Virus record (IMG/VR): IMGVR_UViG_3300025543_005580
Location: 32,001 to 96,000 of that record
Reading direction: 5' to 3' (one strand)
Length of the DNA: 64,000 nt
Source: a virus
Shown: positions 4,807 to 34,737 of the stretch, in pieces
Layout: every line of letters starts with the position of its first letter
Numbering within the stretch: the stretch's first letter is position 1
The notes under the pieces: model-generated
The model's database searches: none
What the model was told of the DNA's origin: nothing
What the model saw: the letters and a program-made list of their open reading frames with translations, nothing else
Made by a program: the position numbers and the translations under genes

Positions 4807-6006
4807 TTAAAGGTTAAGTATTTTATTAATTGATTCGATTACTTTTGTAGGTTTTATTGTTTTAGTACATTCAAACTGTCTTGTTGTATCTTTATGATCA
4901 GGGCACCATTCCCAATCACCTGGATTTAGCCATTCTCTATTAAAACATCCTGTACATACATTTTCATCATAGTTAAATACGCGTTCACAACTTAAAAACT
5001 CACTATATGGTAAACTAAATCCTGATATTAGAATTGTTGGAGTACCAACTGCCCATGATAACCAACTTAAACCACTTCCTAATCCTATAAACCCAGAAGC
5101 ATATTTTAAATCTACCATTCTGTCTTCAATCGGATAATCTCCAGTTTTATCAATTACTCCTGTTAATGTTCCCCCTAATTTAGAATCATGCCAATCATCT
5201 CCTAAACGTTCATGGGTAATCATTACTACTTTATATCCTTGATCTTTTAAATAGTTAATTATTGTTTGCCATCCTCCTGGATGATTCCAATACTTGGCAT
5301 GTGCCGAAGCGTGTGGGGCTATACAAACGTATTTCCCATCAATTTGTTGTCCTTTATTAGGTATTACAATACGTGGTTTTATTTCTGTATAATCTAAACC
5401 TAAAATAGAGGTTGAGGATTGTCCTAATGGGTGTTTTTTAAACTCAATAGGAATTTTATTTTCATTAACTGTCCTATCTTCATTATAATGCCAACCAATA
5501 CTATACATTGCGTATATGTTATTAACTTCAGTTCCTGGTTTTATAAATTCGATTTCAGGATATTCTGCTTCAAACCATTCATTGTGGAATGTAGAACATA
5601 CTACTTTACACTTGTGTTTTTTTCTAAATTCATCTACATAAGGAAACCAAGCTAATGTATCACCTAAGGCTGATGAATCTAAATGGATATAAACTCTTTT
5701 ATCCGTAGCATCATATAAGTATTCAAAATCAATTTCATTTGTTTCTTTATTAACAACTTCAATTTTCCACTTAACAAAATATTCAATATTAGCCTTAGTC
5801 CACATATTATTAGATACATCACAAGTATAACGAACTCTACCTGTCTTATGATCAATAAAATTAACAGTATACTTAGCTTCATTAGATCCTAAAACTTCTA
5901 AAAATGCTCCTTTTACAAAATTAAATTTAAAGGTGTTTGTACCTTTTTTAAAAGGTATATTTAATTGTTCTAAATTATTGTATTCTTGAATTAATACTTC
6001 TTTCAT
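4807..6006 (-). CDS. Aah/TibC-like (autotransporter O-heptosyltransferase family) protein glycosyltransferase
   Basis: LGDTLAWFPY..EF, YVCIA....AKYWN, FIGLGSGLSWLSWAVG.PTILISGFSLP.SEF, and a four-Cys iron-finger pattern CTGC...WCP.H...RQFEC. Confidence 0.85.
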   Translation of the reverse strand: MKEVLIQEYNNLEQLNIPFKKGTNTFKFNFVKGAFLEVLGSNEAKYTVNFIDHKTGRVRYTCDVSNNMWTKANIEYFVKWKIEVVNKETNEIDFEYLYDATDKRVYIHLDSSALGDTLAWFPYVDEFRKKHKCKVVCSTFHNEWFEAEYPEIEFIKPGTEVNNIYAMYSIGWHYNEDRTVNENKIPIEFKKHPLGQSSTSILGLDYTEIKPRIVIPNKGQQIDGKYVCIAPHASAHAKYWNHPGGWQTIINYLKDQGYKVVMITHERLGDDWHDSKLGGTLTGVIDKTGDYPIEDRMVDLKYASGFIGLGSGLSWLSWAVGTPTILISGFSLPYSEFLSCERVFNYDENVCTGCFNREWLNPGDWEWCPDHKDTTRQFECTKTIKPTKVIESINKILNL

Positions 6007-6947
6007 ATGATTTCTTTAAATAATTCTATTAATTCTCTTGAACGATTTAACCATGATAATTCATTCGCTGTATTTATAGAGCGAGTACGGTATTCTGGAT
6101 ATTCGTTTATAATTGTATCTAGGCCTCTTAGCATTTCTCCTAAATGACGTGGGGATCTCCATAATCCATGAAAATCAGTTTCCATCTCAATCCATCCTAA
6201 AATAGGTAAACCACAAGCTGCTGCTTCTACTAATGTAAGATTAGGATGTCCAGCTTCCAAATCTGAAGGATGGAGAAATATTGTATGTGATGTATATAAA
6301 TTTCTAAGTTCTTTATTTGAGGGTTCCCAAACAACATTTAATTTATCATACCCATAAGCCCAAGGGTTATCATTAAACCAATTTTCATTATTTTTAGGAC
6401 CTGCTATTGTAATTGGTAAATTACGAGACATAGCGGTTTGAATACCAAATGTAAATCCTTTTCTATCATATGCACCATAACCACCTAAACCATTATTTGC
6501 TAACATTAATAACTTATGATCTGTTGGATATGTGTTATTAGGATAAAAATCATTAGTATTCACACCATGTGAAAAATACATAACTTTATCCGTTTCAAAA
6601 TAATCAACTAAATAACGAGCAGGAACTAATGATAATACTGAGCGTTCCATTGCTTCTAGATTTTGTTTATATACATAAGAATTTTTACCATAATGATATG
6701 CATGATGGTCATGATGTTGGAAAACATAAGGTACACCCCTATCTGCTAATTCTAAGGCTAAATTAGCTACGTGTACCATTACTATATCATAATCTCCAGG
6801 TTGTACTTCACTTGACCATTTTAAATCAACTTCATGTCCTAATTCCTTAAGATTACATATAAATTCCCATACAATTTTTTCAATAGCTCCCCACGATGGT
6901 GGAGGTATTGGGATACCACAGCCTGGGTTTATTTGTGCTATTCTCAT
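6003..6947 (-). CDS. Glycosyltransferase family 4 (GT-B)
   Basis: IPPPSWGAIEK N-terminus; E-x7-E motif (EAGHPNLTLVEAAACGLP). Confidence 0.85.
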   Translation of the reverse strand: MRIAQINPGCGIPIPPPSWGAIEKIVWEFICNLKELGHEVDLKWSSEVQPGDYDIVMVHVANLALELADRGVPYVFQHHDHHAYHYGKNSYVYKQNLEAMERSVLSLVPARYLVDYFETDKVMYFSHGVNTNDFYPNNTYPTDHKLLMLANNGLGGYGAYDRKGFTFGIQTAMSRNLPITIAGPKNNENWFNDNPWAYGYDKLNVVWEPSNKELRNLYTSHTIFLHPSDLEAGHPNLTLVEAAACGLPILGWIEMETDFHGLWRSPRHLGEMLRGLDTIINEYPEYRTRSINTANELSWLNRSRELIELFKEII

Positions 6948-8905
6948 CTAATTGTTAATTGGCCGTTATTTGTTAAATCATCAGTTGATAATATTTTAGT
7001 ATCAACTAATCCTAATTTATCAATTATTGTAAATTTAATTCTACTACCTTTAATATAAGGAATAAGTTTATAATAATCTATTTTTTGATTAACTTCAATT
7101 ACATCTATATGGGTTTCTTCTCCATTGATATATGATGATATTTCAATTGTTTTACTTTCCTTAGCATTAGATATTCTAATAAAAGGAGCTATCATATTTT
7201 CTTTATTAGTAGGCAACACTGTATAATATTCTACTCTTGAAAAGTCTTCATGAATAAATGAAGTAGATATTAATTCATTGAATTTATCTTCAGATTCATA
7301 ATATATGTTTGAGAGATTTTTAAAAGCATGATACATCATATTTTCATACCCATTAGATTCACTACCCCATTCATTACGTAATAACTCATAATCATTAGTA
7401 TTCATTATTTTTGGGATATTATCTAAATAAAAACTAGAGTTAATTCCTAAAAAATAAGTATACACAGTATCTCCTTCAGCCGCTTTATATTTTCCTAAAT
7501 ACGCATTTTTATTATTTAAAATTTTAGATATTTTATCTATACCTTCTGAGTTGGTGAGGATATAATCATAATTTAGGAAATATACCTTTTTATAACCTAA
7601 ATTATTAGCTAATGCTGCTCCGTTATGATAATTAGAATAACAACTAGGACCGTGGTATATATCATTATCATTACCTCGTAAATTAATTTGAATATCTGCT
7701 TCTTGAGTTGAGGTATAATAATTACAATAATATGAATGTTTTGTTAAAATATTATTATTATCATTAATAGTATAATCTGCTAGTTTTGATAATTCCTCTG
7801 GGATAGGAATATGTGAAGTTAGTATTACTTTTCTACCTGTTGCTTTAACAGATTCAATACATTTTTTAGTTGTAGAGATTACACTATCGGAATTAGGATA
7901 AGTAGAAATTATAAATATTTCATTTTCCGGTGTTACTGTTATTTCCTCTCCTAAAGTTTGTAATATTAAATTTTTATTTTTATCTAAATCATCAAACTCT
8001 AAATAATTAACACTATCATATGAATCAAAGTAATTTTGATATACTTCTAAGTTATACAATAATTGGGGAATTTGATATGATAACGCCTCCCGAATTACTA
8101 AAGGCATAGTTTCCTTATCATTATTAGTACCGCGTGAAGTAAATAAAAATAAGTCCATTGATTGGTAAAAATTATTTACATCCGTACGTTCATTCCACCA
8201 AGTTAAGTTATCTGGTTTATTAGCCATTAATGGTTCCCAATACCATTTAAAATTATCTGCTTGATTACCTACACTATGAAATTCGATATCGGGTAACATT
8301 TTAGCATATTCAAAAAATTCTGCTTGATTTTTACGTGATGTAAATAATCCAATATGTAATACGTGTTTTTTATCTGGATTTAATCCTAATTTTTTTAATG
8401 CTTTACTCCTATCAGGACGATCAACATATTCAATAGGATATTCTACTAATATTTTAGGAATATCTATATCTTTATATTGATCAATTTGCCATTGAGATAC
8501 AAACATAAATTTGTCTGGAAAGAATTGTTTATTGTCTGTATCGAATGAAGAATCATGTGATGTTTCTACAATTTTATATGAACGATTAGTATCATATATT
8601 TTTTCCATAATATCCTTTGGAAAATGAGCTAATTCAGGAATTTCTTCTAAATGAATAATATCGGGTTTGATTCTATTAATTATATCTAAAATTTCTGTTT
8701 TATCTTCTCCTAAAGTATAAAATCTTTCTGTAGGTAATAGAGCTTTAATCTTATTACGAGTTACAACTAACACACCTCCAGTTACATCCGCCCATTCAAT
8801 TAAATGAATTTCATATTCATCTTTTAATAGTTCAATTTTTTTAGTTAAATATTGAGGTAAACCTCCAGTAGATAAATGGGGGGCAATGTATAATAACTTT
8901 TTCAT
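6944..8905 (-). CDS. Two-domain glycosyltransferase (GT4 plus a probable GT-A-like domain)
   Basis: HLSTGGLPQY, RKNQ, DLFLFTS and ETMPLVIREAL motifs; second domain with VILTSH and FLNYD. Confidence 0.8.
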   Translation of the reverse strand: MKKLLYIAPHLSTGGLPQYLTKKIELLKDEYEIHLIEWADVTGGVLVVTRNKIKALLPTERFYTLGEDKTEILDIINRIKPDIIHLEEIPELAHFPKDIMEKIYDTNRSYKIVETSHDSSFDTDNKQFFPDKFMFVSQWQIDQYKDIDIPKILVEYPIEYVDRPDRSKALKKLGLNPDKKHVLHIGLFTSRKNQAEFFEYAKMLPDIEFHSVGNQADNFKWYWEPLMANKPDNLTWWNERTDVNNFYQSMDLFLFTSRGTNNDKETMPLVIREALSYQIPQLLYNLEVYQNYFDSYDSVNYLEFDDLDKNKNLILQTLGEEITVTPENEIFIISTYPNSDSVISTTKKCIESVKATGRKVILTSHIPIPEELSKLADYTINDNNNILTKHSYYCNYYTSTQEADIQINLRGNDNDIYHGPSCYSNYHNGAALANNLGYKKVYFLNYDYILTNSEGIDKISKILNNKNAYLGKYKAAEGDTVYTYFLGINSSFYLDNIPKIMNTNDYELLRNEWGSESNGYENMMYHAFKNLSNIYYESEDKFNELISTSFIHEDFSRVEYYTVLPTNKENMIAPFIRISNAKESKTIEISSYINGEETHIDVIEVNQKIDYYKLIPYIKGSRIKFTIIDKLGLVDTKILSTDDLTNNGQLTIR

Positions 8906-8911
8906 AAATTT

Positions 8912-9505
8912 TTATTTAAAATGTGAACCACCTAACCATAATACTAAGGATCTCCGGGTTCCCCTAGTTATAGGTGAAACTCTGTGGAGGATATATGAAG
9001 GAAACAATACAGCAACTCCTTTTCCTCTAATTGTTTTTTCTGGGGAACCACCTCTTAATACTTCTAAATCACCACCTTCATAATCATTTGTGTCTGATAA
9101 TTGTATTGTGACTGATACTTTTCTAATACTTAATTCTCCAGGGCCTATATCTTGGTGCCAATCATAATGACCTCCATTATCGAAATATTCTGTAAATTGG
9201 ATAGATTCAGGCATCGAGTGTAAATCAAAATTCCATATTGAATTTGCTTCTTTAGCTAATTCTGATATTCTCCAGTAGATCCAACTAAATTCATCAGTTT
9301 GGGGGACCCATCTAACTGTTGATTTTCTAATACCTGTGATTTCATCAGCTTCACCACCACCAGCTATACTAGCATGTTGGGTAGGAATTTTACTGCAATC
9401 CGTAATAATTTTATCTATCTCTTCGGGTGAAAATGCTTCTTGAAACCAATAAAATTCTGTTGGATTAGTATCGTAATTTGGATCAAAATTATAAAATGTT
9501 TTCAT
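8912..9505 (-). CDS. 2OG-Fe(II) oxygenase (prolyl-4-hydroxylase/PKHD-like)
   Basis: H-x-D (WHQD), YEGGDL, LHRVSPITRGTRRSLVLW. Confidence 0.9.
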   Translation of the reverse strand: MKTFYNFDPNYDTNPTEFYWFQEAFSPEEIDKIITDCSKIPTQHASIAGGGEADEITGIRKSTVRWVPQTDEFSWIYWRISELAKEANSIWNFDLHSMPESIQFTEYFDNGGHYDWHQDIGPGELSIRKVSVTIQLSDTNDYEGGDLEVLRGGSPEKTIRGKGVAVLFPSYILHRVSPITRGTRRSLVLWLGGSHFK

Positions 9506-9508
9506 GTA

Positions 9509-10159
9509 TTAATATCTTGGGGGTTCTGGTTTATCACAATCAAAAAAGAACATATGAAAATATCTAGAGTTATAAATGTTATCTCCAAAATATTCACTAG
9601 CAGCATGAATTGTACGAGCATCCCATACTGCTAATCTATTATATACATTACCAATTTTATCTATTAATTCTAATTTAGTTTTATCATAATAGTTACCATT
9701 CGGGAAAGTATCATTATATATTTCGCTTCCATTTTCCCAAGGTTCAAACCTTGTTTTTCCTGTTATTCTAGAACGATAAAAATTAGTACCTGATTCTGGT
9801 GGAGCATCTGGGGTTAAAAATACTACAGCGGCATATTGTTGGGTATCACAATGGTATACTAATGAATCTTGGGCATTACAAAACTGAAATACGCCATTGT
9901 AATTATAATCCCAGTTAGTTATTTCACGTTGTAATATTTTTTCAATTTTTTCTTTTGTACCTTCAACTATTAATTTTTCATGACTACGTTGTCCTTTATG
10001 CCATTGAGATGGTTCAAAATTAAAATTATTTATAGTAAAATCCCTAATACCATCAGGGTCATTATAAAAATTATCTACAGCTAATACTGTGATTTCATGT
10101 CCATTATTAATACCTGAACGGGTTAATTCGTGAAATTGTTTAAATTGTTCTGTCATCAT
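9509..10159 (-). CDS. 2OG-Fe(II) oxygenase-like protein (DUF6445-like)
   Basis: VDNFYNDPD, HCD, SGTNFY, NVYNRL..W....IH, R..H.FFF motifs. Confidence 0.8.
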   Translation of the reverse strand: MMTEQFKQFHELTRSGINNGHEITVLAVDNFYNDPDGIRDFTINNFNFEPSQWHKGQRSHEKLIVEGTKEKIEKILQREITNWDYNYNGVFQFCNAQDSLVYHCDTQQYAAVVFLTPDAPPESGTNFYRSRITGKTRFEPWENGSEIYNDTFPNGNYYDKTKLELIDKIGNVYNRLAVWDARTIHAASEYFGDNIYNSRYFHMFFFDCDKPEPPRY

Positions 10160-11400
10160 AGTTCTCTATATCCTGGTCTACGTTTATCACTTTTAATAGC
10201 ACTTAAATAAGCTCGAGTAACAGGGATATTATTTTCATACATAAATTCATCTGGGAAGTATGTATCTAGTACATATGATTGGAAATGGATTTTATCATTA
10301 TAAATAAAACCAGCATGTAATTTTTTAGTATAATACCAAAATGAATTTTCATTCCAATAACTTACGTGTGTAGGGTCTTGAAAAGCTCCTCTACCATCTG
10401 TAGAAGGGACTTCAATAAAAGCCCATGCACCATCTGCTAATACTCTATGCATTTCAGACATAGTAAATTGTTTATCAGGTAAATGTTCAATTACATGAGA
10501 TGCATTTATTACACCAATTGAATTATCTTCAAATGGCCATTTTTGCGTTAAATCCGCAGTAATATCTCCATTCGTAATATCCACCGACTCATATCCTTCA
10601 CGCGGGTATAAACCACCACCTATGTCAATTTTACGTAAACCTTTTAGGTCAGCATCTCGTTCAGCTAAACGTTGTTGCCATTCATACATCATAGCAACTG
10701 TTCCTTCTTGAATTTCTTGATTACGCTCTAACCATGTATTTTCTCCATAAATTCTATAAAAATAAAGTGTTTTAGGAATATATTTAAATAGAGTAATCAT
10801 GTATGTTCTCATCATTAATTCCTGATCATCCAAAATAGATAATTCTGGGTTATGACCTCCTACTTCTCTATAAATAGATGCTCTCCAAGAACGAACATGA
10901 TCAGGAGCAAACCAAATAAGAGATACACAATTTGCTGATGGTTCAAATGAATCCATAGAGATATAATGTTTACCTTTCCATTCAGCTTGTCTATAAGTCC
11001 AACCATATTCTTCTCCATAAGGAACAAAATCATCCTGTAGTTTAGCATTATCACTATATACAAAACCAATTTCAGGGTCTTCAAATGCTTTTGCTACTTC
11101 TGATAGACAATCAGGGGTAATAACATCATCATGATCTACTTCTACTAGAATATCACCAGTTGCAATATGGAATGCTTTGTTTTTTAGATACCCTACGTTT
11201 GTACTTAATGGGGTTTTAATATCATGGTGGATATTAACCCTAGGGTCATTAACTATTTCAGATGATAAATCATCTTTACGTAGACCTCCATTTAGATAAA
11301 GAAGCCATTCCCAATCTTGATATGTTTGGTCTTTTAATGAATCGTACAATTCATTTAAATATGTTCCCTTGTGGGTTGGTGTAACTACACTTAATTTCAT
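10156..11400 (-). CDS. GT2 glycosyltransferase fused to a SAM-dependent methyltransferase-like domain
   Basis: SVVTPT and VEVDHDD (DxD) motifs; C-terminal DIGGG, ASHVIEHL and DPTHVSYW. Confidence 0.85.
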   Translation of the reverse strand: MKLSVVTPTHKGTYLNELYDSLKDQTYQDWEWLLYLNGGLRKDDLSSEIVNDPRVNIHHDIKTPLSTNVGYLKNKAFHIATGDILVEVDHDDVITPDCLSEVAKAFEDPEIGFVYSDNAKLQDDFVPYGEEYGWTYRQAEWKGKHYISMDSFEPSANCVSLIWFAPDHVRSWRASIYREVGGHNPELSILDDQELMMRTYMITLFKYIPKTLYFYRIYGENTWLERNQEIQEGTVAMMYEWQQRLAERDADLKGLRKIDIGGGLYPREGYESVDITNGDITADLTQKWPFEDNSIGVINASHVIEHLPDKQFTMSEMHRVLADGAWAFIEVPSTDGRGAFQDPTHVSYWNENSFWYYTKKLHAGFIYNDKIHFQSYVLDTYFPDEFMYENNIPVTRAYLSAIKSDKRRPGYREL

Positions 11401-11423
11401 AAAACTTATTTAATTTAAAACTT

Positions 11424-11452
11424 AATATAATAACAAATTATTACATATCCAA
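11424..11452 (-). promoter_or_regulatory. Sigma70-like promoter (TTGGAT-N17-TATATT) for the modification cluster
   Basis: Same architecture recurs at 52727-52755. Confidence 0.55.
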
Positions 11453-11453
11453 G

Positions 11454-14489: not shown

Positions 14490-14502
14490 TATATTATTTT
14501 AT

Positions 14503-14511
14503 TATAAATAT
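14503..14511 (-). promoter_or_regulatory. Putative late promoter (fibre C)
   Basis: Conserved intergenic motif. Confidence 0.7.
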
Positions 14512-14512
14512 T

Positions 14513-17026: not shown

Positions 17027-17030
17027 TATA

Positions 17031-17039
17031 TATAAATAT
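17031..17039 (-). promoter_or_regulatory. Putative late promoter (fibre B)
   Basis: Conserved motif 4 nt from the ATG. Confidence 0.7.
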
Positions 17040-19598: not shown

Positions 19599-19607
19599 AT
19601 TCGTTTA

Positions 19608-25600: not shown

Positions 25601-28600
25601 CTGCTTCACCTGCTGTACCATTTGAACCTGAAGAACCACTTGTTCCACTAGTTGCACTTAGAGCACTTGCTCCTGCTTCACCTGAAGTACCTGAGCTACC
25701 CGTTGAACCACTAGTTCCTGATGTTTCGCTATTTCCTGAAGTACCTGCAACTCCACTTGTACCTATTGTACCTGAAGAACCTGAAGTACCTGAAGTAGCA
25801 CTTAAACCACTTTGACCATCATTACCTGTAGTACCGTTTGAACCACTTGAACCTGATGTTCCTGAGGTTGCACTTAGGGCTGAAGCACCTGCATCTCCAG
25901 CAGTACCTGAACTACCTGTTGAACCTGAGGTTCCGCTAGTAGCACTTAAAGCACTAGCACCTGCTTCACCTGCTGTACCATTTGAACCAGTTGAACCTGA
26001 AGTACCTGAAGTTCCTGAAGAACCTGAACTTGCACTATCTCCACTTGTTCCAGCTACACCTGATGTACCTATAGTACCTGATGAACCACTAGTTCCTGAA
26101 GTAGCACTTAATCCTGATTGTCCTGCATTACCTGAAGTACCATTTGAACCTGTACTACCTGAACTACCAGATGTACCTGAAGTTGCACTTAAGGCTGAAG
26201 CTCCGGCTTCACCTGCTGTACCACTTGAACCACTAGAACCACTTGTTCCAGATGTATTACTTAGAGCCGAAGCACCTGCATCTCCAGCAGTACCTGAACT
26301 ACCTGTTGAACCTGAGGTTCCACTTGTTTCGCTATTTCCTGAAGTACCTGCAACTCCACTTGTACCAATTGTACCTGAAGAACCTGAAGTACCCGATGTT
26401 GCACTTAGTGCTGATTGACCAGCATTCCCCGCCGTACCATTTGAACCAGATGAACCACTAGTTCCTGAAGTAGCACTTAAAGCACTTGCTCCTGCATCTC
26501 CTGCAGTACCTGAACTACCTGTTGAACCGCTTGTTCCACTTGTTTCACTATTACCTGAAGTTCCAGCTACACCTGATGTACCGTTTGTACCCGTACTACC
26601 TGATGAACCTGAAGTACCTGCTGATCCTGATGTTGCACTAGCACCTGAAGTGCCTGCTACTCCTGAAGTACCAATTGTACCTGAAGATCCTGAAGTTCCA
26701 CTTGTAGCACTTAGAGCACTTTGTCCTGCGTTTCCTGCTGTACCATTTGAACCACTAGATCCAGATGTACCTGATGTAGCACTTAAAGCTGAAGCACCTG
26801 CGTCTCCTGCTGTACCACTAGAACCTGTTGAACCTGAAGTACCTGAAGTAGCACTTAAAGCTGAAGCACCTGCTTCACCTGCTGTACCACTAGAACCAGT
26901 TGAACCTGAAGTTCCTGATGAACCTGAACTTGCACTATTTCCTGAAGTTCCAGCTACACCTGAGGTACCTACTGTACCTGAACTTCCTGAAGTTCCACTT
27001 GTAGCACTTAATGCGCTTTGTCCTGCGTTTCCTGCTGTACCATTTGAACCACTTGAACCACTTGAACCACTTGTTCCACTTGTAGCACTTTCAGCGGAAG
27101 CACCTGCTTCACCTGCTGTACCTGATGAACCACTTGAACCTGAAGTACCACTTGTAGCACTTAAAGCGCTTTCTCCAGCATCACCTGCTGTACCTGTTGA
27201 ACCTGATGAACCTGAAGTTCCTGATGAACCTGAACTTGCACTATTTCCTGACGTACCTGCAACTCCTGAAGTACCAATTGTACCTGAAGAACCGCTAGTT
27301 CCACTTGTATCACTTAAGCCACTTTCACCTGCATTACCTGATGTACCTGTTGAACCACTAGAACCCGAAGTACCACTTGTTGCACTATCTCCTGACTCAC
27401 CTGTTGTACCTGATGATCCTGTAGAACCACTTGTACCTGATTCTCCACTTGTAGCTGCAATTCCATTTTCTCCTGAAGTACCTGATGAACCTGTTGTTCC
27501 ACTAGTAGCACTAATTCCTGAAGTACCTGCAATTCCGTTTTCACCACTTGTACCTGATGAGCCTGTTGTACCTGAGGTGGCACTATCACCACTTGTTCCA
27601 GCTACACCGCTTGTACCTATTGTACCTGATGAACCACTAGTTCCACTCGTAGCACTTAGTGCACTTTGACCAGCATTACCTGCTGTACCATTTGAACCTG
27701 AAGAACCACTAGTTCCACTAGTAGCACTATCGGCTGAAGCACCTGCTTCACCTGCTGTACCACTTGAACCACTAGAACCACTTGTACCACTTGTCTCACT
27801 TAAGGCAGAAGCACCAGCTTCACCTGCTGTACCTGAACTACCTGTTGAACCGCTTGTTCCACTTGAACCACTTGTTTCACTATTTCCTGATGTACCTGCA
27901 ACTCCTGAAGTACCTATTGTACCTGATGAACCTGAAGTACCTGAAGTAGCGCTTAAACCACTTTCTCCAGCATTACCATTCGTTCCTGTTGAACCTGAAG
28001 AACCACTAGTTCCACTTGTTTCACTATTTCCTGATTGACCAGCACTACCTGAAGAACCTGTAGAACCTGAAGTTCCTGATTCTCCACTAGTTGCAGCAAC
28101 TCCATCAGCACCTGAAGTACCTGATGAACCTGTTGTTCCACTAGTAGCACTTATACCACTTGTTCCAGCAATTCCATCAGCACCTGCTGAACCTGAACTA
28201 CCTGTTGTACCTGAGGTGGCACTATCTCCACTTGTTCCAGCTACACCACTTGTACCTATTGTACCTGAAGATCCTGATGTACCTGAAGTAGCACTATTTC
28301 CTGATTGACCTGCGTTTCCAGCAGTACCATTTGAACCCGTTGATCCACTTGTACCACTTGTGGCACTTAAAGCGGAAGCGCCTGCATCTCCTGCTGTACC
28401 TGATGAACCTGAACTTCCTGAGGTACCTGAAGTAGCACTTAAAGCTGAAGCACCTGCGTCTCCTGCTGTACCTGAACTACCTGATGAACCTGAAGTTCCT
28501 GATGAACCTGATGAAGCACTAGCACCTGAAGTACCTGCAACTCCACTTGTACCTATTGTACCACTTGAACCAGCAGTACCTGAAGTAGCACTTAAACCAC

Positions 28601-31600
28601 TTTGTCCTGCGTTTCCAGCAGTTCCTGTTGAACCACTTGAACCTGAAGTACCACTTGTAGCACTATTTCCTGATTCTCCTACGGTACCGTTTGATCCTGT
28701 TGAACCACTTGTTCCTGATTCTCCACTTGTACCTGAAATTCCATCAGCTCCATTTGAACCTGATGAACCTGTTGTACCTGAAGTTGCACTTGCGCCACTT
28801 GTACCTGAAATTCCATCAGCTCCATTTGAACCTGATGAACCTGTTGTACCTGAAGTTGCACTTGCGCCACTTGTACCATTAATTCCGCTAGTACCTATTG
28901 TACCTGATGAACCGCTTGTTCCGGATGTAGCACTTAAACCACTTTGTCCTGCGTTTCCAGCAGTTCCTGTTGAACCACTTGAACCGCTTGAACCGCTTGT
29001 TCCACTAGTAGCACTATCGGCTGAAGCACCTGCGTCTCCTGCTGTACCTGATGAACCTGATGAACCACTTGTTCCTGATGTTGCACTATCTGCTGAAGCA
29101 CCTGCTTCACCTACTGTACCACTTGAACCTGTTGAACCACTTGTTCCTGATGTTGCACTATCTCCACTTGTACCTGCGACTCCTGAAGTACCTATTGTAC
29201 CTGAGCTACCTGAAGTACCTGAAGTAGCACTTAAACCACTTTGTCCTGCGTTTCCAGCAGTTCCTGTTGAACCACTTGAACCTGAAGTACCTGAAGTGGC
29301 ACTATTTCCTGATTGACCTGCAATTCCATTATCTCCTGAAGTACCACTTGAACCAGTTGTACCTGAAGTACCTGATTCACCTGAAGTTCCTGCAACTCCA
29401 TCAGCACCTGATGAACCTGAGCTACCTGTTGTTCCACTTGTAGCACTTTCACCACTTGTTCCAGCAATTCCATCAGCTCCGTTTGAACCTGATGAACCTG
29501 TTGTTCCACTAGTAGTACTTTCACCTGAAGTACCTGCTACACCTGAGGTACCTATTGTACCTGATGAACCACTAGTTCCTGAAGTTGCACTTTGAGCAGA
29601 TTGACCTGCGTTACCTGATGTACCAGTTGAACCACTAGTACCACTAGTTCCACTTGAAGCACTATCTCCTGAATTACCAGCAGTACCTGAACTACCTGTT
29701 GTACCTGAAGTACCTGATTCACCGCTAGTTGCTGCTATTCCATTTTCACCTGAAGTACCTGAAGAACCTGTTGTTCCTGAAGTACTTGATTCGCCACTTG
29801 TGCCTGCAACTCCATCAGCACCTGCTGAACCTGAACTACCTGTTGTACCTGAGGTGGCACTATCTCCACTTGTACCAGCAACTCCTGAAGTACCTATTGT
29901 ACCTGAAGAACCTGATGAACCGCTTGTAGCAGAAGCACCTGATTGACCTGCATTTCCTGAAGTACCTGAAGAACCATCTTCACCACTTGTACCTGAAGTA
30001 CCTGTAGCACCTGATTGCCCAGCGGCACCTGTTGTACCTGAAGATCCGTCAATACCACTTGTACCTGATGTACCATCAACTCCTGAAGTACCAACTGTAC
30101 CTGAAGCACCTGATGTTCCACTTGTTGCTGAAACACCTGACTGACCTGCATTTCCTGAAGTACCTGTAGAACCGGTTGAACCTGAAGTTCCTGAGGTAGA
30201 ACTTAAACCGCTTTCTCCAGCAATTCCATTATCCCCTGATGTACCTGAGCTACCTGTTGTACCTGATGTACCACTAAATCCACTAATTCCATCATTACCT
30301 GCTTCACCTGTTGTACCACTAGAACCAGTTGAACCTGAAGTACCTGATTCACCTGATGTACCTGATGTACCTGAATCTCCTGAAGTACCTGAAACTCCTG
30401 AAGTACCTATTGTACCACTTTCTCCAGACGTACCTGAAGTAGCTGTTAACCCTGATTGACCTGCATTTCCTGAAGTACCTGAAGAACCATCTTCACCACT
30501 TGTACCTGAAGTACCTGTAGCACCTGATTGTCCAGCGGCACCTGTTGAACCTGATGAACCATCTATACCACTAGTACCTGAGGTACCATCAACTCCACTT
30601 GTACCTATTGTACCTGAGTCTCCTGAAGTACCTGAAGTGGCACTATTTCCTGATTGACCTGCATTTCCTGAAGTACCTGAAGAACCATCTTCACCACTTG
30701 TACCTGAAGTTCCATCGGCTCCTGATTGTCCAGCAGCACCTGTTGTACCTGAAGATCCGTCAATACCACTTGTACCTGATGTACCTGCAACTCCTGAAGT
30801 ACCTATTGTACCTGAGTCTCCTGACGTACCTGAAGTACCTGCAACTCCGCTTTGTCCATCGGCACCATTTGTTCCTGATGTACCTGATTGTCCTGTTGTA
30901 CCTGAAGAACCAGCTTGTCCTGATGTACCTGATGTAGCTGCTACATATCCTAGTGTTCCTGTAATAGGATCGTATGTTACTACATTTACTATATCTTGTA
31001 CAGGTAAAGTATCTACATTAAAACTACCTGTTACTTCTAAACTACCTGAAATTATTGCTGAACCAGTATATGGGAAAGCTCCTATACCTGATGTACCTGA
31101 GGTAGCAGCAATTTGACCTGTAGTAGTAATTACATATGAGTAATGTGAAGTACCTTCAGTATAGAAAGTTGTATTTAGATTTTGGTTTTCGTTGTTTTTA
31201 ACCCAAATCTCAACCATCATACGATATGATGGATCAATAGTACTTCCTACTAATGTAATATCAGTTTCAAGTAATACTGGGGTTGTATTATTGTTATTCC
31301 ATCCTATTAGTGTGGGTTGAGAATTACCTAGGGTTTGTAATACGTTACCTGAACCGTCTGTAATTTTTAATGTAATAAATAATTCTACATCATCGTTTAT
31401 AGCTGGTTTAGTAGCCCATAATTTAAATTGTTGAACACCACCTGGGATTACATTAAATCCAAATGGAGTTGAAATATATGTTTGTAACTTAGTATCTGTG
31501 TTTTGAATAGCAGATACAGTAACTGATTGTTCGGCAGATACTGTTACATCTTTAGATAATTGTTTATAGGGTGATACTTCAACTACTGATTCATTAAAGT

Positions 31601-32609
31601 AGTAAATAGCACCTGTTGTAAGACCATCTCTACCGGATGTACCTGATTCACCTGATGTACCTGATGTACCTGATGTACCTGATGTACCTGAAGTACCTGA
31701 AGTACCATTAGCACCTGAAGTACCTGCTGTAGCTGCTGCTCCACCAGTAATATCTACTAATACTCCGTTTGATCCCGAAGTTGTTACTACAACACCAGAT
31801 CCGGTAAAATTAATATCAGCATTATTTTTAGACACTAACGAACCGGTATAATATATATCAGTTTGTGTTAAATCATCTAGGAAATTTTGAACTTCAATTT
31901 GATAAGCAGCAAATTCTTGACCTGTATTTAAATCTGTAAATCCTGGGAAATTAGATTTAAACATTGGTGCTAAACTTTCGTTTTCTGAAAGAGCAACAAC
32001 TGCTATATTTTGATTTGCCCCTGGGAATAAGGTATCTCCTGATTCTGTTTCTGTGCCTTTTTCATCCCACGTTATATAAATTGAACCTTCAGAACCATTT
32101 ATTGCTCTATAATATACTTCTTCTATTGAATATTTATGAAATCTACCATTAATTGATTGATCAGAAAGATTAGCGGCTTGTCCTAAAATAGCATACTCTG
32201 GGGATAATGCCGAGTTATAATCTGAATCTTCACTACCTGTAATATCATTAAAATCAATTAATCCTTGAGGATCAGTAATAGAAGCCGATGGTATATAATA
32301 ATCTCCAACGGCTGGTGATATACGAGCTAATCCTTGAGTTTCATTAGTTGCTGGAAGAGAAGCTACTGTAATAGTATTTAATACTGTATCTACAGCTGTA
32401 ATTGTTACGCCAGAAGGGAATGCTGAAGATTCTACTAGCATTTGGCCTACACGGACAAAGTCTATATTTAGATATCCAGCAACGTCTGTTACATTTGTTA
32501 GGGTTGTTGATGCTGTTGTTGCATCAAATGTTACCCTAATATATGAATTACTTCCATTACCTATTGGTGAAGCGTTTGATAGCTTCCCATAAAAAAGTTG
32601 TCTTGCCAT
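19608..32609 (-). CDS. Giant (4333 aa) Gly/Ser/Thr triplet-repeat fibre protein with a C-terminal intramolecular-chaperone-like domain
   Basis: About 3500 aa of GTS/GSS triplets. C-terminus GTVMVW...PVLVIG.VKEGDYLVTS..VGHA...FAKALE resembles tail-fibre chaperone domains. Confidence 0.8.
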   Translation of the reverse strand: MARQLFYGKLSNASPIGNGSNSYIRVTFDATTASTTLTNVTDVAGYLNIDFVRVGQMLVESSAFPSGVTITAVDTVLNTITVASLPATNETQGLARISPAVGDYYIPSASITDPQGLIDFNDITGSEDSDYNSALSPEYAILGQAANLSDQSINGRFHKYSIEEVYYRAINGSEGSIYITWDEKGTETESGDTLFPGANQNIAVVALSENESLAPMFKSNFPGFTDLNTGQEFAAYQIEVQNFLDDLTQTDIYYTGSLVSKNNADINFTGSGVVVTTSGSNGVLVDITGGAAATAGTSGANGTSGTSGTSGTSGTSGTSGESGTSGRDGLTTGAIYYFNESVVEVSPYKQLSKDVTVSAEQSVTVSAIQNTDTKLQTYISTPFGFNVIPGGVQQFKLWATKPAINDDVELFITLKITDGSGNVLQTLGNSQPTLIGWNNNNTTPVLLETDITLVGSTIDPSYRMMVEIWVKNNENQNLNTTFYTEGTSHYSYVITTTGQIAATSGTSGIGAFPYTGSAIISGSLEVTGSFNVDTLPVQDIVNVVTYDPITGTLGYVAATSGTSGQAGSSGTTGQSGTSGTNGADGQSGVAGTSGTSGDSGTIGTSGVAGTSGTSGIDGSSGTTGAAGQSGADGTSGTSGEDGSSGTSGNAGQSGNSATSGTSGDSGTIGTSGVDGTSGTSGIDGSSGSTGAAGQSGATGTSGTSGEDGSSGTSGNAGQSGLTATSGTSGESGTIGTSGVSGTSGDSGTSGTSGESGTSGSTGSSGTTGEAGNDGISGFSGTSGTTGSSGTSGDNGIAGESGLSSTSGTSGSTGSTGTSGNAGQSGVSATSGTSGASGTVGTSGVDGTSGTSGIDGSSGTTGAAGQSGATGTSGTSGEDGSSGTSGNAGQSGASATSGSSGSSGTIGTSGVAGTSGDSATSGTTGSSGSAGADGVAGTSGESSTSGTTGSSGTSGENGIAATSGESGTSGTTGSSGTAGNSGDSASSGTSGTSGSTGTSGNAGQSAQSATSGTSGSSGTIGTSGVAGTSGESTTSGTTGSSGSNGADGIAGTSGESATSGTTGSSGSSGADGVAGTSGESGTSGTTGSSGTSGDNGIAGQSGNSATSGTSGSSGSTGTAGNAGQSGLSATSGTSGSSGTIGTSGVAGTSGDSATSGTSGSTGSSGTVGEAGASADSATSGTSGSSGSSGTAGDAGASADSATSGTSGSSGSSGSTGTAGNAGQSGLSATSGTSGSSGTIGTSGINGTSGASATSGTTGSSGSNGADGISGTSGASATSGTTGSSGSNGADGISGTSGESGTSGSTGSNGTVGESGNSATSGTSGSSGSTGTAGNAGQSGLSATSGTAGSSGTIGTSGVAGTSGASASSGSSGTSGSSGSSGTAGDAGASALSATSGTSGSSGSSGTAGDAGASALSATSGTSGSTGSNGTAGNAGQSGNSATSGTSGSSGTIGTSGVAGTSGDSATSGTTGSSGSAGADGIAGTSGISATSGTTGSSGTSGADGVAATSGESGTSGSTGSSGSAGQSGNSETSGTSGSSGSTGTNGNAGESGLSATSGTSGSSGTIGTSGVAGTSGNSETSGSSGTSGSTGSSGTAGEAGASALSETSGTSGSSGSSGTAGEAGASADSATSGTSGSSGSNGTAGNAGQSALSATSGTSGSSGTIGTSGVAGTSGDSATSGTTGSSGTSGENGIAGTSGISATSGTTGSSGTSGENGIAATSGESGTSGSTGSSGTTGESGDSATSGTSGSSGSTGTSGNAGESGLSDTSGTSGSSGTIGTSGVAGTSGNSASSGSSGTSGSSGSTGTAGDAGESALSATSGTSGSSGSSGTAGEAGASAESATSGTSGSSGSSGSNGTAGNAGQSALSATSGTSGSSGTVGTSGVAGTSGNSASSGSSGTSGSTGSSGTAGEAGASALSATSGTSGSTGSSGTAGDAGASALSATSGTSGSSGSNGTAGNAGQSALSATSGTSGSSGTIGTSGVAGTSGASATSGSAGTSGSSGSTGTNGTSGVAGTSGNSETSGTSGSTGSSGTAGDAGASALSATSGTSGSSGSNGTAGNAGQSALSATSGTSGSSGTIGTSGVAGTSGNSETSGTSGSTGSSGTAGDAGASALSNTSGTSGSSGSSGTAGEAGASALSATSGTSGSSGSTGSNGTSGNAGQSGLSATSGTSGSSGTIGTSGVAGTSGDSASSGSSGTSGTSGSTGSNGTAGEAGASALSATSGTSGSTGSSGTAGDAGASALSATSGTSGSSGSNGTTGNDGQSGLSATSGTSGSSGTIGTSGVAGTSGNSETSGTSGSTGSSGTSGEAGASALSATSGTSGSSGSNGTAGEAGASALSATSGTSGSSGSTGSNGTNGNAGQSGLSATSGTSGSSGTVGTSGVAGTSGASASSGSSGTSGTSGSTGSNGTAGEAGASALSSTSGTSGTSGSTGSSGTAGNAGASALSATSGTSGSSGSNGTSGNAGQSALSATSGTSGSSGTIGTSGVAGTSGNSASSGSSGTSGSSGSTGTAGDAGASALSATSGTSGSSGSSGTAGDAGASALSATSGTSGSTGSNGTSGNAGQSGLSATSGTSGSSGTVGTSGVAGTSGNSTTSGSAGTSGTSGSTGSNGTAGEAGASALSATSGTSGSSGSSGTAGDAGASALSATSGTSGSSGSNGTAGNAGQSALSATSGTSGSSGTIGTSGVAGTSGNSSTSGTSGSTGSTGTSGNAGESGISNTSGTSGTSGSTGSNGSIGASGASATSGSAGTSGSSGSTGSNGTSGNAGQSGLSATSGTSGSSGTVGTSGVAGTSGASASAGTSGTSGSSGSTGSSGTAGEAGVSALSATSGTSGSTGSSGTAGNAGASALSATSGTSGSSGSNGTAGNAGQSALSSTSGTSGSSGTIGTSGVAGTSGNSETSGTSGSTGSSGTSGDAGASALSATSGTSGSSGSNGTAGNAGASALSATSGTSGSSGSTGSNGTSGNSGQSGLSATSGTSGSSGTVGTSGVAGTSGNSETSGTSGSTGSSGTAGDAGASALSNTSGTSGSSGSNGTAGNAGDSALSATSGTSGSSGSSGSSGSNGTSGNAGLSGLSATSGTSGSSGTIGTSGVAGTSGLSATAGTSGTSGSTGSNGTAGNAGASALSATSGTSGTSGSTGSNGTAGNAGASALSATSGTSGTSGSTGSNGTTGNAGLSGLSATSGTSGSSGTIGTSGVAGTSGLSATAGTSGTSGSTGSNGTAGNAGASALSATSGTSGTSGSTGSNGTAGNAGASALSATSGTSGTSGSTGSNGTTGNAGLSGLSATSGTSGSSGTIGTSGLAGTSGLSKTSGTSGSTGSNGTSGNAGVAGASALSATSGTSGSSGSSGTTGNAGASALSKTSGTSGSTGSNGTTGNAGQSGLSATSGTSGSSGTVGTSGVAGTNGLSALSGTSGSTGSNGTSGNAGANGTSNVSGTSGSTGSNGTSGVAGNNGTSNISGTSGSSGSNGTNGASGASRTSGTSGSSGSTGTTGNAGQSGLSATSGTSGSSGTIGTSGVAGTNGLSRLSGTSGSSGSNGTTGNNGTNGLSRFSGTSGSSGSNGTSGVNGASGISRTSGSSGTSGSSGSNGTTGNAGLSGLSATSGTSGSSGTIGTSGVAGTSGLSRVSGTSGSTGSNGTSGNAGANGTSNVSGTSGSTGSNGTSGNAGANGTSNVSGTSGSTGSSGTSGNNGASGASRTSGTSGSSGSTGTNGNNGASGISRTSGTSGSSGTSGNNGVSGASKTSGTSGSTGSNGTTGNAGLSGLSATSGTSGSSGTIGTSGVAGTSGLSRTSGASGSTGSNGTSGVNGTSGLSRVSGTSGSSGSNGTSGVNGASGISRTSGTSGTSGSSGSNGTIGNAGQSALSATSGTSGSSGTIGTSGVAGTSGLSRVSGTSGSSGSNGTSGVNGGNGLSRLSGTSGSSGSNGTSGVNGASGASRTSGTSGSSGTSGNTGTNGLSRASGTSGSTGSNGTSGNTGTNGLSKLSGTSGSSGSNGTTGNNGTNGLSRVSGTSGSTGSNGTTGNAGLSGLSATSGTSGSSGTIGTSGVAGTSGLSRLSGTSGSTGSNGTSGVGGASGVSGGSGTSGTSGIDGTSGISGNVGTSGTYVSIIAGSGLTGGGALSTDRTLNIGSGTGITVNANDIAINWSNTANNGEIVSYNAGRPNRLTVANYTAPDFNWDGNMNPIQDRVWDIGRPDLCWRDVWAIAFNTCGIFEQNLAGNNKEDNNNHELGTVMVWKDGDLVPCTNEKDHMRMGVMVPDKNIPIVQGAEPVLVIGIVKEGDYLVTSDKVGHAKAITREEMINENLQDVVFAKALESGSGDSYVINAYINI
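22741..23397. repeat. Near-exact 315-bp (105-aa) tandem duplication inside the giant fibre gene
   Basis: CTTAATCCTGATAAACCAGCATTACC at 22741, 23056 and 23371. Confidence 0.85.
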
Positions 32610-32647
32610 TTTATACTAGTATGTTATGATCAATTTGAATATTCCAG

Positions 32648-32656
32648 TATAAATAT
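32648..32656 (-). promoter_or_regulatory. Putative late promoter (giant fibre)
   Basis: Conserved motif directly after a terminator. Confidence 0.7.
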
Positions 32657-32659
32657 GAT

Positions 32660-32686
32660 AAAAAAAAGCCCCAAATTGGGGCTTTT
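32660..32686 (-). terminator. Rho-independent terminator, possibly bidirectional
   Basis: AAAAGCCCCA-AAT-TGGGGCTTTT with an A/T run on both sides. Confidence 0.8.
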
Positions 32687-32709
32687 AAAAATAATTTTAT
32701 TTTTTTATT

Positions 32710-34737
32710 TTAGAAATGCATTGTATATAATAATGAACCAAATAAATCTAAACCACCGGATAAAGTATAAACATTATGATTAGCAGATGTGCTAAAAGTA
32801 ATACCACCAGCATTTATTTGAGATGAATTAGAACCACCAACATTAAAGAATTGACATTGGGCAACATTTCTAGTATCTAAACTATTATTTTTACCAGCAC
32901 CATTTTCTAAAGCATTAGAAGGTAAAGTAACTGTAATAGTACCTGTATCCGATGAATTAATAAATACTTGGAGAGATAATAATTGGCAATTTCCTGCACT
33001 TGGTGCTTCAATAGTTAATGCTGTTTCACTTACTGCTGTTACATCAAAAGCTGGTATATAAACACCTGCTGTTCCACTTGTATCTCCTGAATCTGCTACA
33101 GTACAAGTAAATGTATTAGTACCTGTTGAAGTAATAGAAACATAAACATAATCTACATTAAAGTTTCTTAATACAACATAATCTCCAGTTGTTAAACCAT
33201 GTGATGTTGAAGTTACCGTTAATGTAGTACTTGAACGAGACCAACTTAATCCACTAATAGTATTACCAGCAGACATTAATTGTGCTTTATCTGAACCACT
33301 AGTTACTTCATATCTAACTACATTAGTATATGGAGTACCACCTCCACCGGCAGCACTAGTACCTGAAGTACCGGCAGCACCACTTGTTCCAGATGAACCT
33401 GGGTTACCTTGAGCACCTGTTTCTCCACTTGTTCCTGATGAACCTGAATCTCCTGAAGTACCTGATGTACCTATTGCTCCATTAGCTCCACTTGTACCTG
33501 ATGTACCTATTGCTCCATTAGCACCTGAAGTACCTGATGTACCTGGGGCACCTGTATCTCCACTTGTTCCTGAAGTACCTGGAGCACCTGCGGCTCCATT
33601 ATCACCTGAAGTACCTGATGTACCTGGATTACCTTGAGCACCTACTTCTCCTGAAGTACCTGATGTACCTACAGCACCTGCAGCTCCACTTGTTCCTGAA
33701 GAACCAGGAGCACCTGCTGCACCTGCGTCTCCTGAAGTACCTGAAGTACCTGGAGCACCTGTGGCTCCATTATCACCTGAAGTACCTGAAGTACCTGGAT
33801 TACCTTGAGCACCTACTTCTCCTGAAGTACCTGATGTACCTGGAGCACCTGCGGCTCCATTATCACCTGAAGTACCTGATGTACCTGGAGCACCTGCGGC
33901 TCCATTATCACCTGAAGTACCTGAAGTACCTGGAGCACCTGCGTCTCCTGATGTACCTGAAGTACCTGGAGCACCTGGAGCACCTGCGTCTCCTGAAGTA
34001 CCTGATGTACCTGGGTTACCTGCAGCTCCTGTGTCTCCTGAGGTACCTGAAGTACCTGGAGCACCTGCGTCTCCTGATGTACCTGAAGAGCCAGCATTAC
34101 CTGAAATTCCTGATGTACCGGATGTACCTATGGCTCCATCTTCTCCTGAAGTACCTGATGTACCTGGAGCACCTGCGACTCCATTATTACCTGAAGTACC
34201 TGAAGTACCTGGGGCACCTGTATTTCCTGAGGTACCTGAAGTACCTGGGGCACCTGTATTTCCTGAGGTACCTGATGTACCTGGAGCACCTGCGACTCCA
34301 TTATTACCTGAAGTACCTGAAGTACCTACTGCACCTGCAGCTCCATCAGCACCCGAAGTACCTGAAGTACCTACTGCACCGGCAGCTCCACTTGTTCCTG
34401 AGGTACCTGTAGCTCCTGATTCACCAGACGTACCTGATGAACTTGCACCACCTGATATTGTTATACTAGCTACACCTGCTGCTATATCAACACTATCAAC
34501 TGCTGTACCAGCAAAGTTAAGTGTTGATGCTGTACCTACTGCTGAACCAGTATATTGTATTGGAATTAAACCACTACCACCTCCTCCGGAACCGGAGACT
34601 GCGGGATATACATTACCCTGATAGTCTTTAATATATAAACGACCTAGGTCAGTTGGTTCAGAAAAAAGTGCTACAGATCCAGATGCTGGATTTGTTATAC
34701 TTCCTGATGGGGTTGATTGTTGATTTATTTGAGCCAC
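32710..34737 (-). CDS. Gly-X-Y (GTS/GAP) fibre or decoration protein
   Basis: About 370 aa of GTSGTSGDNGAAGAP repeats; C-terminal beta domain with TVTSTSHGLTTGDYV. GTG start. Confidence 0.8.
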   Translation of the reverse strand: MAQINQQSTPSGSITNPASGSVALFSEPTDLGRLYIKDYQGNVYPAVSGSGGGGSGLIPIQYTGSAVGTASTLNFAGTAVDSVDIAAGVASITISGGASSSGTSGESGATGTSGTSGAAGAVGTSGTSGADGAAGAVGTSGTSGNNGVAGAPGTSGTSGNTGAPGTSGTSGNTGAPGTSGTSGNNGVAGAPGTSGTSGEDGAIGTSGTSGISGNAGSSGTSGDAGAPGTSGTSGDTGAAGNPGTSGTSGDAGAPGAPGTSGTSGDAGAPGTSGTSGDNGAAGAPGTSGTSGDNGAAGAPGTSGTSGEVGAQGNPGTSGTSGDNGATGAPGTSGTSGDAGAAGAPGSSGTSGAAGAVGTSGTSGEVGAQGNPGTSGTSGDNGAAGAPGTSGTSGDTGAPGTSGTSGANGAIGTSGTSGANGAIGTSGTSGDSGSSGTSGETGAQGNPGSSGTSGAAGTSGTSAAGGGGTPYTNVVRYEVTSGSDKAQLMSAGNTISGLSWSRSSTTLTVTSTSHGLTTGDYVVLRNFNVDYVYVSITSTGTNTFTCTVADSGDTSGTAGVYIPAFDVTAVSETALTIEAPSAGNCQLLSLQVFINSSDTGTITVTLPSNALENGAGKNNSLDTRNVAQCQFFNVGGSNSSQINAGGITFSTSANHNVYTLSGGLDLFGSLLYTMHF

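Follow-up and report, generated by a model that had tools for sequence, protein, structure and literature searches.

A TibC-like transferase and two fibre-matched enzyme sets beside the collagen-like genes of an uncultured T4-like phage: candidates for modification of the phage's own fibres

Protein O-heptosyltransferases of the TibC/Aah family (BAHT; TIGR04414) have been described in the pairs TibC–TibA and Aah–AIDA-I (PDB 4RAP/4RB4; PMC4358343), in which the enzyme adjoins a surface protein, long, repetitive and rich in Ser, that becomes hyperglycosylated while still in the cytoplasm. Here we analyse a homologue of these enzymes in an uncultured aquatic T4-like phage, where the TibC-like gene belongs to a cluster of six enzyme genes lying between five genes for collagen-like Gly-X-Y fibres and the tail sheath gene. 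The window, that is, the whole stretch of DNA analysed, comprises 64,000 nucleotides (bases 32001-96000) of an IMG/VR virus record of 111,989 bp that is 69% complete. The phage enzyme shares with TibC and Aah the N-terminal barrel, the GT-B core, the catalytic Asp, the ADP-heptose contacts and the four-Cys iron finger, and its gene likewise adjoins that of a long repetitive Ser-rich protein. It differs in that the partner is a collagen-like Gly-Thr/Ser-Ser protein encoded in a phage structural operon, in belonging to a long-branch clade, in having Gly as its stereoselectivity residue and in being accompanied by two or three extra transferase domains.

Several other described systems resemble the locus in part. 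In mycobacteriophages, phage glycosyltransferases decorate the phage's own structural proteins (Freeman 2023, cited in PMC12619734 and PMC12801897); however, they are of other enzyme families, their targets as described in the citing papers are the C-termini of capsid and tail-tube proteins, and collagen, hydroxylases and BAHT enzymes have no part in those accounts. Mimivirus L230, a lysyl hydroxylase-glucosyltransferase, and animal PLOD/COLGALT combine a 2-oxoglutarate (2OG) oxygenase with a glycosyltransferase on collagen-like proteins, enzyme and collagen both being virus-encoded in mimivirus, but their chemistry is lysine-based, whereas the fibres of the present phage have almost no Lys, its oxygenases are of the P4H/PHD type and its host is a bacterium. 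Further cases are BclA of the Bacillus anthracis exosporium and the cuticle collagen of Riftia, where, as cited in PMC11923368, O-glycans on Thr/Ser-rich tracts replace hydroxyproline; those tracts are given as Gly-Pro-Thr rich and the transferases are unrelated, while here the tracts are proline-free and paired with a BAHT enzyme. Finally, animal C-P4H, PBCV-1 P4H, B. anthracis P4H and the PKHD enzymes (PiuC/YbiX) have the double-stranded beta-helix fold and the HxD...H...R site also found in this cluster, beside Pro-rich repeats, with the differences that the closest solved sequences are of the PiuC/YbiX type, that Pro is mainly in the X position here and that a peptide-binding domain is absent. 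The usual picture of prokaryotic and phage collagens is that they carry no modifications, and prolyl hydroxylase is usually said to be missing from bacteria (PMC11923368); where glycosyltransferases occur in phage fibre regions, the common reading is that they modify host lipopolysaccharide (LPS) or DNA (PMC7029224, PMC12801897). A full-text literature search returned no paper linking heptosyltransferases to collagen-like proteins or TibC to phages.

We propose that the collagen-like fibres are modified by the phage's own enzymes, in two sets each matched to its substrate, a reading to which we assign a rough probability of 0.62. It draws on family membership, conserved catalytic residues, gene linkage and the co-variation of enzymes with fibre chemistry, all of which are observed directly. 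An initial annotation of this DNA had likewise held that the enzymes act on the neighbouring fibres, and this is supported by synteny, by the match between enzymes and fibre chemistry, by the TibC clade, by the enrichment of TibC-like genes on GTS-collagen contigs and by an enzyme fusion in Microcystis phage Mel-JY01; what emerges, however, is a pair of substrate-matched modules and not the single six-enzyme pathway that had been envisaged. The 'fibre coat' of that annotation would depend on where the fibres sit on the virion. Module A consists of the TibC-like gene and two GT4 genes, and module B of a GT2-methyltransferase, a DUF6445 protein and a P4H-like oxygenase (Table 1). Particular to this genome is that both modules stand side by side, each with its own fibre chemistry.

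The coordinates bear out the tight coupling of the six enzyme genes noted earlier: adjacent genes overlap by 4 nt at three junctions and are separated by gaps of 3-6 nt at the rest. All genes are on the minus strand, and the order of transcription is F5, F4, F3, F2, F1, the six enzyme genes, an open reading frame (ORF) of 82 aa, the sheath gene and the tube gene. The 82-aa ORF probably belongs to the tail backbone and not to the modification system. Among cultured phages, the sheath protein is closest to those of Flavobacterium phage immuto (53% identity) and Mel-JY01.

Table 1. Fibre genes, enzyme genes and downstream boundary of the cluster, in order of transcription (positions in the window; SAM, S-adenosylmethionine)
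Feature	Coordinates	Strand	Description
F5	32710..34737	-	675 aa; one 360-residue G-X-Y block (residues 102-461), GTS/GAS/GAP type
F4, giant fibre	19608..32609	-	4333 aa; collagen-like span at residues 561-4109
F3	17040..19598	-	852 aa; G-P-Q / G-G-Q / G-Y-Q type, repeat period of 43 aa
F2	14513..17026	-	837 aa; G-P-Q / G-Y-Q / G-x-T type; 72% in G-X-Y runs
F1	11454..14489	-	1011 aa; G-Y-Q / G-P-Q type
GT2-methyltransferase, module B	10156..11400	-	GT2 at residues 4-133 (DHD at 89) and class I SAM methyltransferase at ~250-350
DUF6445 (PF20043) protein, module B	9509..10159	-	33.2 bits against a cut-off of 24
P4H/PKHD-type 2OG-Fe(II) oxygenase (2OG-FeII_Oxy_3, PF13640), module B	8912..9505	-	197 aa; E=1e-13
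Bifunctional transferase (GT4b), module A	6944..8905	-	653 aa; three domains
GT4-type glycosyltransferase (GT4a), module A	6003..6947	-	314 aa
TibC/Aah-family (BAHT) protein O-heptosyltransferase homologue, module A	4807..6006	-	399 aa
82-aa ORF	4538..4786	-	Accompanies the sheath gene in relatives
Tail sheath gene	2511..4487	-	Downstream boundary of the cluster

Judged by its sequence, the TibC-like gene is a true, full-length member of the BAHT family. Residues 18-396 of its product align to TibC (PDB 4RAP) with E=5.5e-67, and the TIGR04414 equivalog model is matched over positions 3-374 of 374 with 336.4 bits against a cut-off of 200. In TibC, Asp110 is the catalytic base, ADP-heptose is contacted by Arg286, Trp305, Thr226 and Lys230, and an iron finger formed by Cys339/342/358/370 is needed for the dodecamer (PMC4358343). 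The equivalents of D110, K230 and W305 (D116, K238 and W315) and the four iron-finger cysteines (C351, C354, C368 and C380) do not vary among eight diverse phage homologues. The equivalent of R286 is kept in six of these eight, namely the window's protein and five of the seven others, and is replaced in Mel-JY01 and LR756504, while Thr226 corresponds to Ser234 in the window's protein. The alignment, the above-threshold score and the retained catalytic and Cys residues together confirm the TibC-like identity that had been assigned at the outset. From the conserved cysteines, iron binding and a dodecameric assembly would be predicted. The donor is most likely ADP-heptose.

The association of this enzyme with Gly-Thr/Ser-Ser collagens extends well beyond the present record. 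TibC-like relatives are encoded on 321 viral contigs, and synteny was counted on the best 80 of these 321 loci. Module A is present in all 80, beside proline-free Gly-Thr/Ser-Ser fibres; the order GT4b–GT4a–TibC–(82 aa)–sheath–tube is kept in 77, and G-X-Y genes lie directly upstream in 23 of the 27 loci that have more than 2 kb of upstream DNA. Loci with differing layouts (L073/74/78, Mel-JY01, LR756501, L194 and L218) have GTS runs within a few kb as well: in Mel-JY01, a GT4, a methyltransferase-like segment and a TibC-like domain are fused into one protein of 1226 aa, with GTS genes about 2.5 kb upstream, and in the huge phage LR756501 GSS/GTS runs lie 5 kb from the TibC-like homologue. Phage immuto, which is without a TibC-like gene, has no GTS run in the 33 kb examined. 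When the question was reversed, 49 viral records were taken arbitrarily from those matching the GTS pattern at least twice; 16 of them encode a TibC-like protein, among these three of the five records that were at least 90% complete. In this reciprocal sample the TibC-like domain is often fused into a protein of 675-1458 aa. The initial annotation had suggested co-occurrence of TibC-like and GTS-repeat genes across phages as a check, and TibC-like genes are indeed enriched on GTS-collagen contigs. As to Mel-JY01 itself (PP395634.1, L001), the coding sequences deposited at 1-651 and 739-2298 run opposite to the open Gly-Thr/Ser-Ser frame of bases 1-2298; because the collagen frame runs in the same direction as all its neighbours, this annotation is probably on the wrong strand.

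The same association is seen in cellular genomes, for which one-genome-per-species contigs were compared. G-S/T-S/T runs occur nearby in 12 of the 16 closest bacterial loci versus one of 64 distant ones (Fisher p=4e-10); the close groups are Flavobacteriales, Methylobacter, Methylomicrobium, Schekmanbacteria, Ignavibacteria, Arenicellales and Acidiferrobacterales, and the distant homologues are from Lentisphaeria, Burkholderiaceae and Bradyrhizobium. The proteobacterial partners are signal-peptide proteins of 112-290 aa, made up mostly of GTS triplets and encoded among housekeeping chromosomal genes, and pairs of a TibC-like gene with such a small GTS protein were seen in Methylobacter, Methylomicrobium, Arenicellales and Acidiferrobacterales (L090, L091, L092, L097, L099, L100 and L103). 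They look like the cellular version of the same enzyme–substrate pair. In a maximum-likelihood TibC tree, with AIDA-I-linked plasmid enzymes at the root, the enzymes of all phages and those of the GTS-linked bacterial loci fall into one clade (SH-aLRT 100, stem length 1.21), with GTS runs in 21 of 31 rows of the clade versus one of 68 rows outside it; the rows of the clade without GTS runs are mostly short contigs. Two reference loci (L168/L169) have AIDA-I/ESPR neighbours, and the phage clade is separate from both in the tree. The closest non-viral TibC-like genes, at 61% and 56% identity, are on contigs assigned to Winogradskyella sp. and to a Flavobacteriales metagenome-assembled genome (L088, L089). 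With a GC content of 0.33 and GTS fibres upstream, these look like phage contigs that were binned with Flavobacteriales, and as such they hint at the host group.

The fibres themselves amount to five genes and 23.3 kb, in agreement with the roughly 23 kb of Gly-X-Y genes reported initially. Long uninterrupted Gly-X-Y runs, the hallmark of Collagen (PF01391), are present in them: they account for 43-72% of each fibre and reach 360 residues, and four of the five genes match the Pfam Collagen profile with E values of 5e-23 to 5e-53. F4 gives about 100 Collagen matches. Ser and Thr together number 2418 over the five fibres, 1795 of them in F4, so that the earlier estimate of more than a thousand was amply borne out. 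Two fibre chemistries occur in the one genome, F4 and F5 being of the Gly-Thr/Ser-Ser type and F1-F3 of the Gly-Pro-Gln/Gly-Tyr-Gln type.

F4 is built from GTS, GSS, GST and GAS triplets. Its G-X-Y runs contain no Pro in X or Y (28 Pro in the whole protein), and its collagen-like span of 3549 residues would measure about 1 micrometre if triple-helical. It has a period of 24 aa (72 nt) in which seven G-X-Y triplets are followed by an in-register Ala-Thr-Ser triplet, which gives a Gly-to-Ala break at every eighth triplet; 'ATS' occurs 40 times and 'ALSATS' 33 times. F5 has 18 Pro in the Y position. F1, F2 and F3 have an N-terminal domain of about 60 aa in common and carry Pro mostly in the X position (25-45 in X versus 0-7 in Y per protein), and residues 234-328 of F1 form a PA14 domain, of the carbohydrate-binding type, between two collagen blocks. 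Lys is scarce throughout (3-24 per fibre), and KGD/KGE triplets are absent from every fibre. It therefore appears doubtful, from composition, that an unmodified triple helix would be stable in F4, without X/Y Pro, or in fibres without KGD/KGE.

Two other explanations were discarded. That the giant F4 gene might be an assembly artefact was ruled out by an orthologue of 4499 aa with identical layout in an independent metagenome record and by the divergence of its repeats (60-90% matches); a further orthologue of about 3190 aa is found in a third record. A lysine chemistry of the mimivirus type was rejected because the fibres have almost no Lys, and a PLOD-type match was not found. Searches of the non-collagen fibre ends, and of the four small ORFs upstream of F5, against Pfam and PHROG gave no matches, and relatives of the non-collagen ends of F4 and F5 were not found in the 80 related loci.

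If the two enzyme sets are matched to their substrates, module B should follow the proline-type fibres, and this is largely what we observe. Module B is present in some loci only and was seen only beside Gly-Pro-Gln/Gly-Tyr-Gln fibres. In those loci with module B and enough upstream DNA (the window, L015, L042 and L059), the adjacent collagen holds 16-114 X-position Pro, and in about 25 loci without the module there are 0-1 Pro in up to 546 triplets. In a relative whose record is 93% complete, all fibres are Pro-free and the P4H-like gene is nowhere present, in a search whose positive control worked. On the TibC tree, the loci bearing this cassette occupy at least three separate places, next to loci without it, and the three Pro-type fibres and three enzymes therefore appear to have been gained or lost as one six-gene block. 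In an independent sample of arbitrary GTS-collagen viral contigs found by DNA pattern, the P4H-positive loci rank 2, 3, 6 and 12 of 67 by Pro per triplet (Mann-Whitney p=1e-4).

The presence of two 2OG-Fe(II) oxygenases in module B, as initially annotated, holds. One matches PF13640, has the motifs H-Q-D...H...R and is closest in sequence, among PDB entries, to the PKHD-type hydroxylases PiuC and Sbal_3634. For the DUF6445 protein, a search of the PDB gave no sequence matches, and the assignment is confirmed by metal-site residues and fold: the motif H103-x-D105...H185...R199 is invariant across 24 homologues, and the AF2 model (pLDDT 84.8) finds OGFOD1, PHD2 and P. putida P4H as its best Foldseek matches (E 1e-5 to 2e-4, TM 0.4-0.56). 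As modelled, the DUF6445 protein is a 2OG-Fe(II) oxygenase with a prolyl-hydroxylase-like fold.

In module A, the two proteins first described as GT4 are indeed both of GT4 type, but the 653-aa one has a second transferase domain in addition. GT4a scores 31 bits on Glycos_transf_1 and is without EX7E in its C-terminal half. GT4b comprises a GT4 GT-B domain (residues 1-321; 41 bits on Glycos_transf_1, EX7E at residue 265; VIA Z 15-16 to PimA, WaaG and sucrose-phosphate synthase), a GT-A-fold domain (322-558; VIA Z 13-14 to B4GALNT1, WrtF and mannosylglycerate synthase) and a beta-sandwich (559-652). Relatives of GT4b add an FkbM methyltransferase domain or a weak GT25-like domain; the latter, at 19.4 bits against the Pfam cut-off of 24, is C-terminal, does not occur in the window's protein and is not relied on.

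Expression of the enzymes is probably coupled to that of the fibres. The coding-strand motif ATATTTATA stands 3-40 nt upstream of 14 structural-gene starts, among them those of tube, sheath, F1, F2, F4 and F5, at sites between positions 1054 and 60700 of the window (for example 4511-4518, 14503-14510, 17031-17038, 32648-32655 and 34756-34763), and TATAAATA has 23 matches versus 11.5 expected. To us ATATTTATA looks like the core of a late promoter, in the orientation opposite to the TATAAATA late promoter of T4. Since ATATTTATA is absent before the six enzyme genes, these appear to be co-transcribed with F1 from the F1 promoter, and are probably read through from it together with the fibres.

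On the proposed mechanism, fibres and modification enzymes would share their late transcripts. What the enzymes act on, which sugar they add, at which residues and to what structural end are inferences from the evidence above. In F4 and F5, the proline-free fibres of Gly-Thr/Ser-Ser type, module A would O-glycosylate Ser/Thr. A first sugar, most likely heptose from host ADP-heptose, would come from the TibC-like enzyme and be extended by the GT4 and GT-A domains. Module B would act on F1-F3, most likely hydroxylating Pro and then adding a methylated sugar. The decorations would probably make the helices more stable or stiffer and present glycans at the fibre surface; a role as helix stabiliser would suit chains without Pro, hydroxyproline and salt-bridge triplets. 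There is precedent in that a (Gly-Pro-Thr)10 peptide passes from random coil to triple helix upon glycosylation of Thr (PMC11923368), and the same source presents Riftia, BclA and (GPT)10 as cases in which a Thr glycan replaces hydroxyproline as the stabiliser of the helix. A bolder version of the proposal would have a TibC-type clade of phages and bacteria dedicated to proline-free Gly-Thr/Ser-Ser collagens, its ring-forming enzymes threading micrometre-long chains and their heptose glycans replacing hydroxyproline, with a second cassette carrying out prolyl hydroxylation, possibly at the X position, and then glycosylation of the Pro-type fibres. We put this version forward tentatively, and would sooner wager against it than for it.

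A number of observations weigh against the proposal that the phage modifies its own collagen. The characterised BAHT enzymes modify folded beta-helical autotransporters and not collagen (PMC4358343), and the neighbours of the present enzyme are collagen-like fibres in place of such an autotransporter. The position that governs heptose stereoselectivity (D,D- versus L,D-) is Pro300 in TibC and Ser294 in Aah (PMC4358343), and because it is Gly in the TibC-like protein, the exact donor sugar cannot be read from the sequence. The linkage inside the phage clade is partly inherited synteny and does not represent repeated independent events. The distant homologue LR756504 and the bacterial locus L101 are without a GTS run in the DNA examined. 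The Pro of F1-F3 sits in the X position, and animal collagen P4H hydroxylates Y-position Pro (X-Pro-Gly). In L217 (IMGVR_UViG_3300027754_000054), Pro occurs in 52% of triplets (297 in X) and a P4H-like gene was not seen in 12 kb, which makes this record the one clear exception to the pairing of P4H with Pro-type collagen in the sample.

Genes of the ADP-heptose pathway (PF13580, PF00294, PF01370) were likewise not found in the 112 kb, which is a weak negative in a record that is 69% complete, and the profile-family search is insensitive, having missed the window's own PF13640 gene. A Pfam scan of 20 further ORFs gave only genes of replication and nucleotide metabolism and none of the ADP-heptose pathway. 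The proteobacterial genomes of the clade contain an RfaE-type kinase, for which a Flavobacteriales metagenome-assembled genome has a match close to the cut-off. Elsewhere in the record, a 783-aa protein (G000:C1:97626-99977; L003 1626-3977) has a weak N-terminal cytidylyltransferase-like match, and its homologue in Mel-JY01 is also annotated as cytidylyltransferase-like; no link to sugar-nucleotide synthesis was found.

The enzymes might instead modify virion proteins elsewhere than in the collagen tracts, such as the globular fibre ends, the sheath or the capsid, the repeats being bystanders. The known cases of phage virion glycosylation (Freeman 2023, cited in PMC12619734) concern C-termini of capsid and tail-tube proteins, and TibC itself recognises folded beta-helix repeats (PMC4358343). 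However, the only feature common to all partners, phage fibres and bacterial proteins alike, is the Gly-Thr/Ser-Ser tract, and the non-collagen ends of the fibres lack conservation across related loci, so that we regard this explanation as unlikely.

About equally unlikely, in our view, is a role of the transferases in remodelling host surface glycans (LPS or capsule), for example in a block to superinfection, with the fibre region serving as a hypervariable hot spot for accessory genes. Glycosyltransferases encoded near the tail fibres of marine myophages are usually seen in this light (PMC7029224). Polysaccharides are a common product of GT2 and GT4 enzymes, and the GT4 and GT2 genes here find their best NCBIfam matches in glycolipid and teichuronic-acid enzymes, although far under the cut-off. 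Yet protein glycosylation is what all characterised TibC-family members carry out (PMC4358343), the same clade stands beside small GTS-repeat proteins in bacterial chromosomes, and the co-variation of enzyme type with fibre chemistry is not something that action on host glycans would predict.

That the TibC-like enzyme acts on proteins of the host and not on phage fibres, altering the host surface by way of, for instance, adhesins or surface proteins with GTS repeats, is very improbable: bacteria do have TibC-like/GTS pairs of their own, so a host substrate class exists, but thousands of GTS triplets stand beside the enzyme in the phage's own genome and GTS-collagen viral contigs are strongly enriched for it in the reciprocal sample. 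Least credible of all is hypermodification of the phage DNA, in which the oxygenases would hydroxylate bases and the transferases add sugars, as phage glycosyltransferases and TET/JBP-type 2OG oxygenases are known to do, for both oxygenases are of the P4H/PHD/OGFOD1 type without resemblance to TET/JBP, TibC-family enzymes act on proteins, and the genes sit in a late structural block behind a fibre promoter.

Modification of the phage's own collagen-like fibres by two matched enzyme sets thus remains the reading that we favour, and the locus lends itself to its examination: one genome with two fibre chemistries, each beside fitting enzymes, provides a built-in control and a directly testable hypothesis. 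If the proposal is true, it would supply enzyme–substrate pairs for glycosylated designer collagens, and it would account for the folding of collagen chains that run to 3500 residues without proline and with little charge. For the TibC family, the range of substrates would widen from the adhesins of pathogens to collagen, and hundreds of 'auxiliary' phage transferases would be reassigned to the maturation of virions. On the bolder version, many 'LPS-modifying' transferases of phage fibre regions would serve the maturation of fibres, and prokaryotic and viral collagens would possess a dedicated post-translational machinery of their own.

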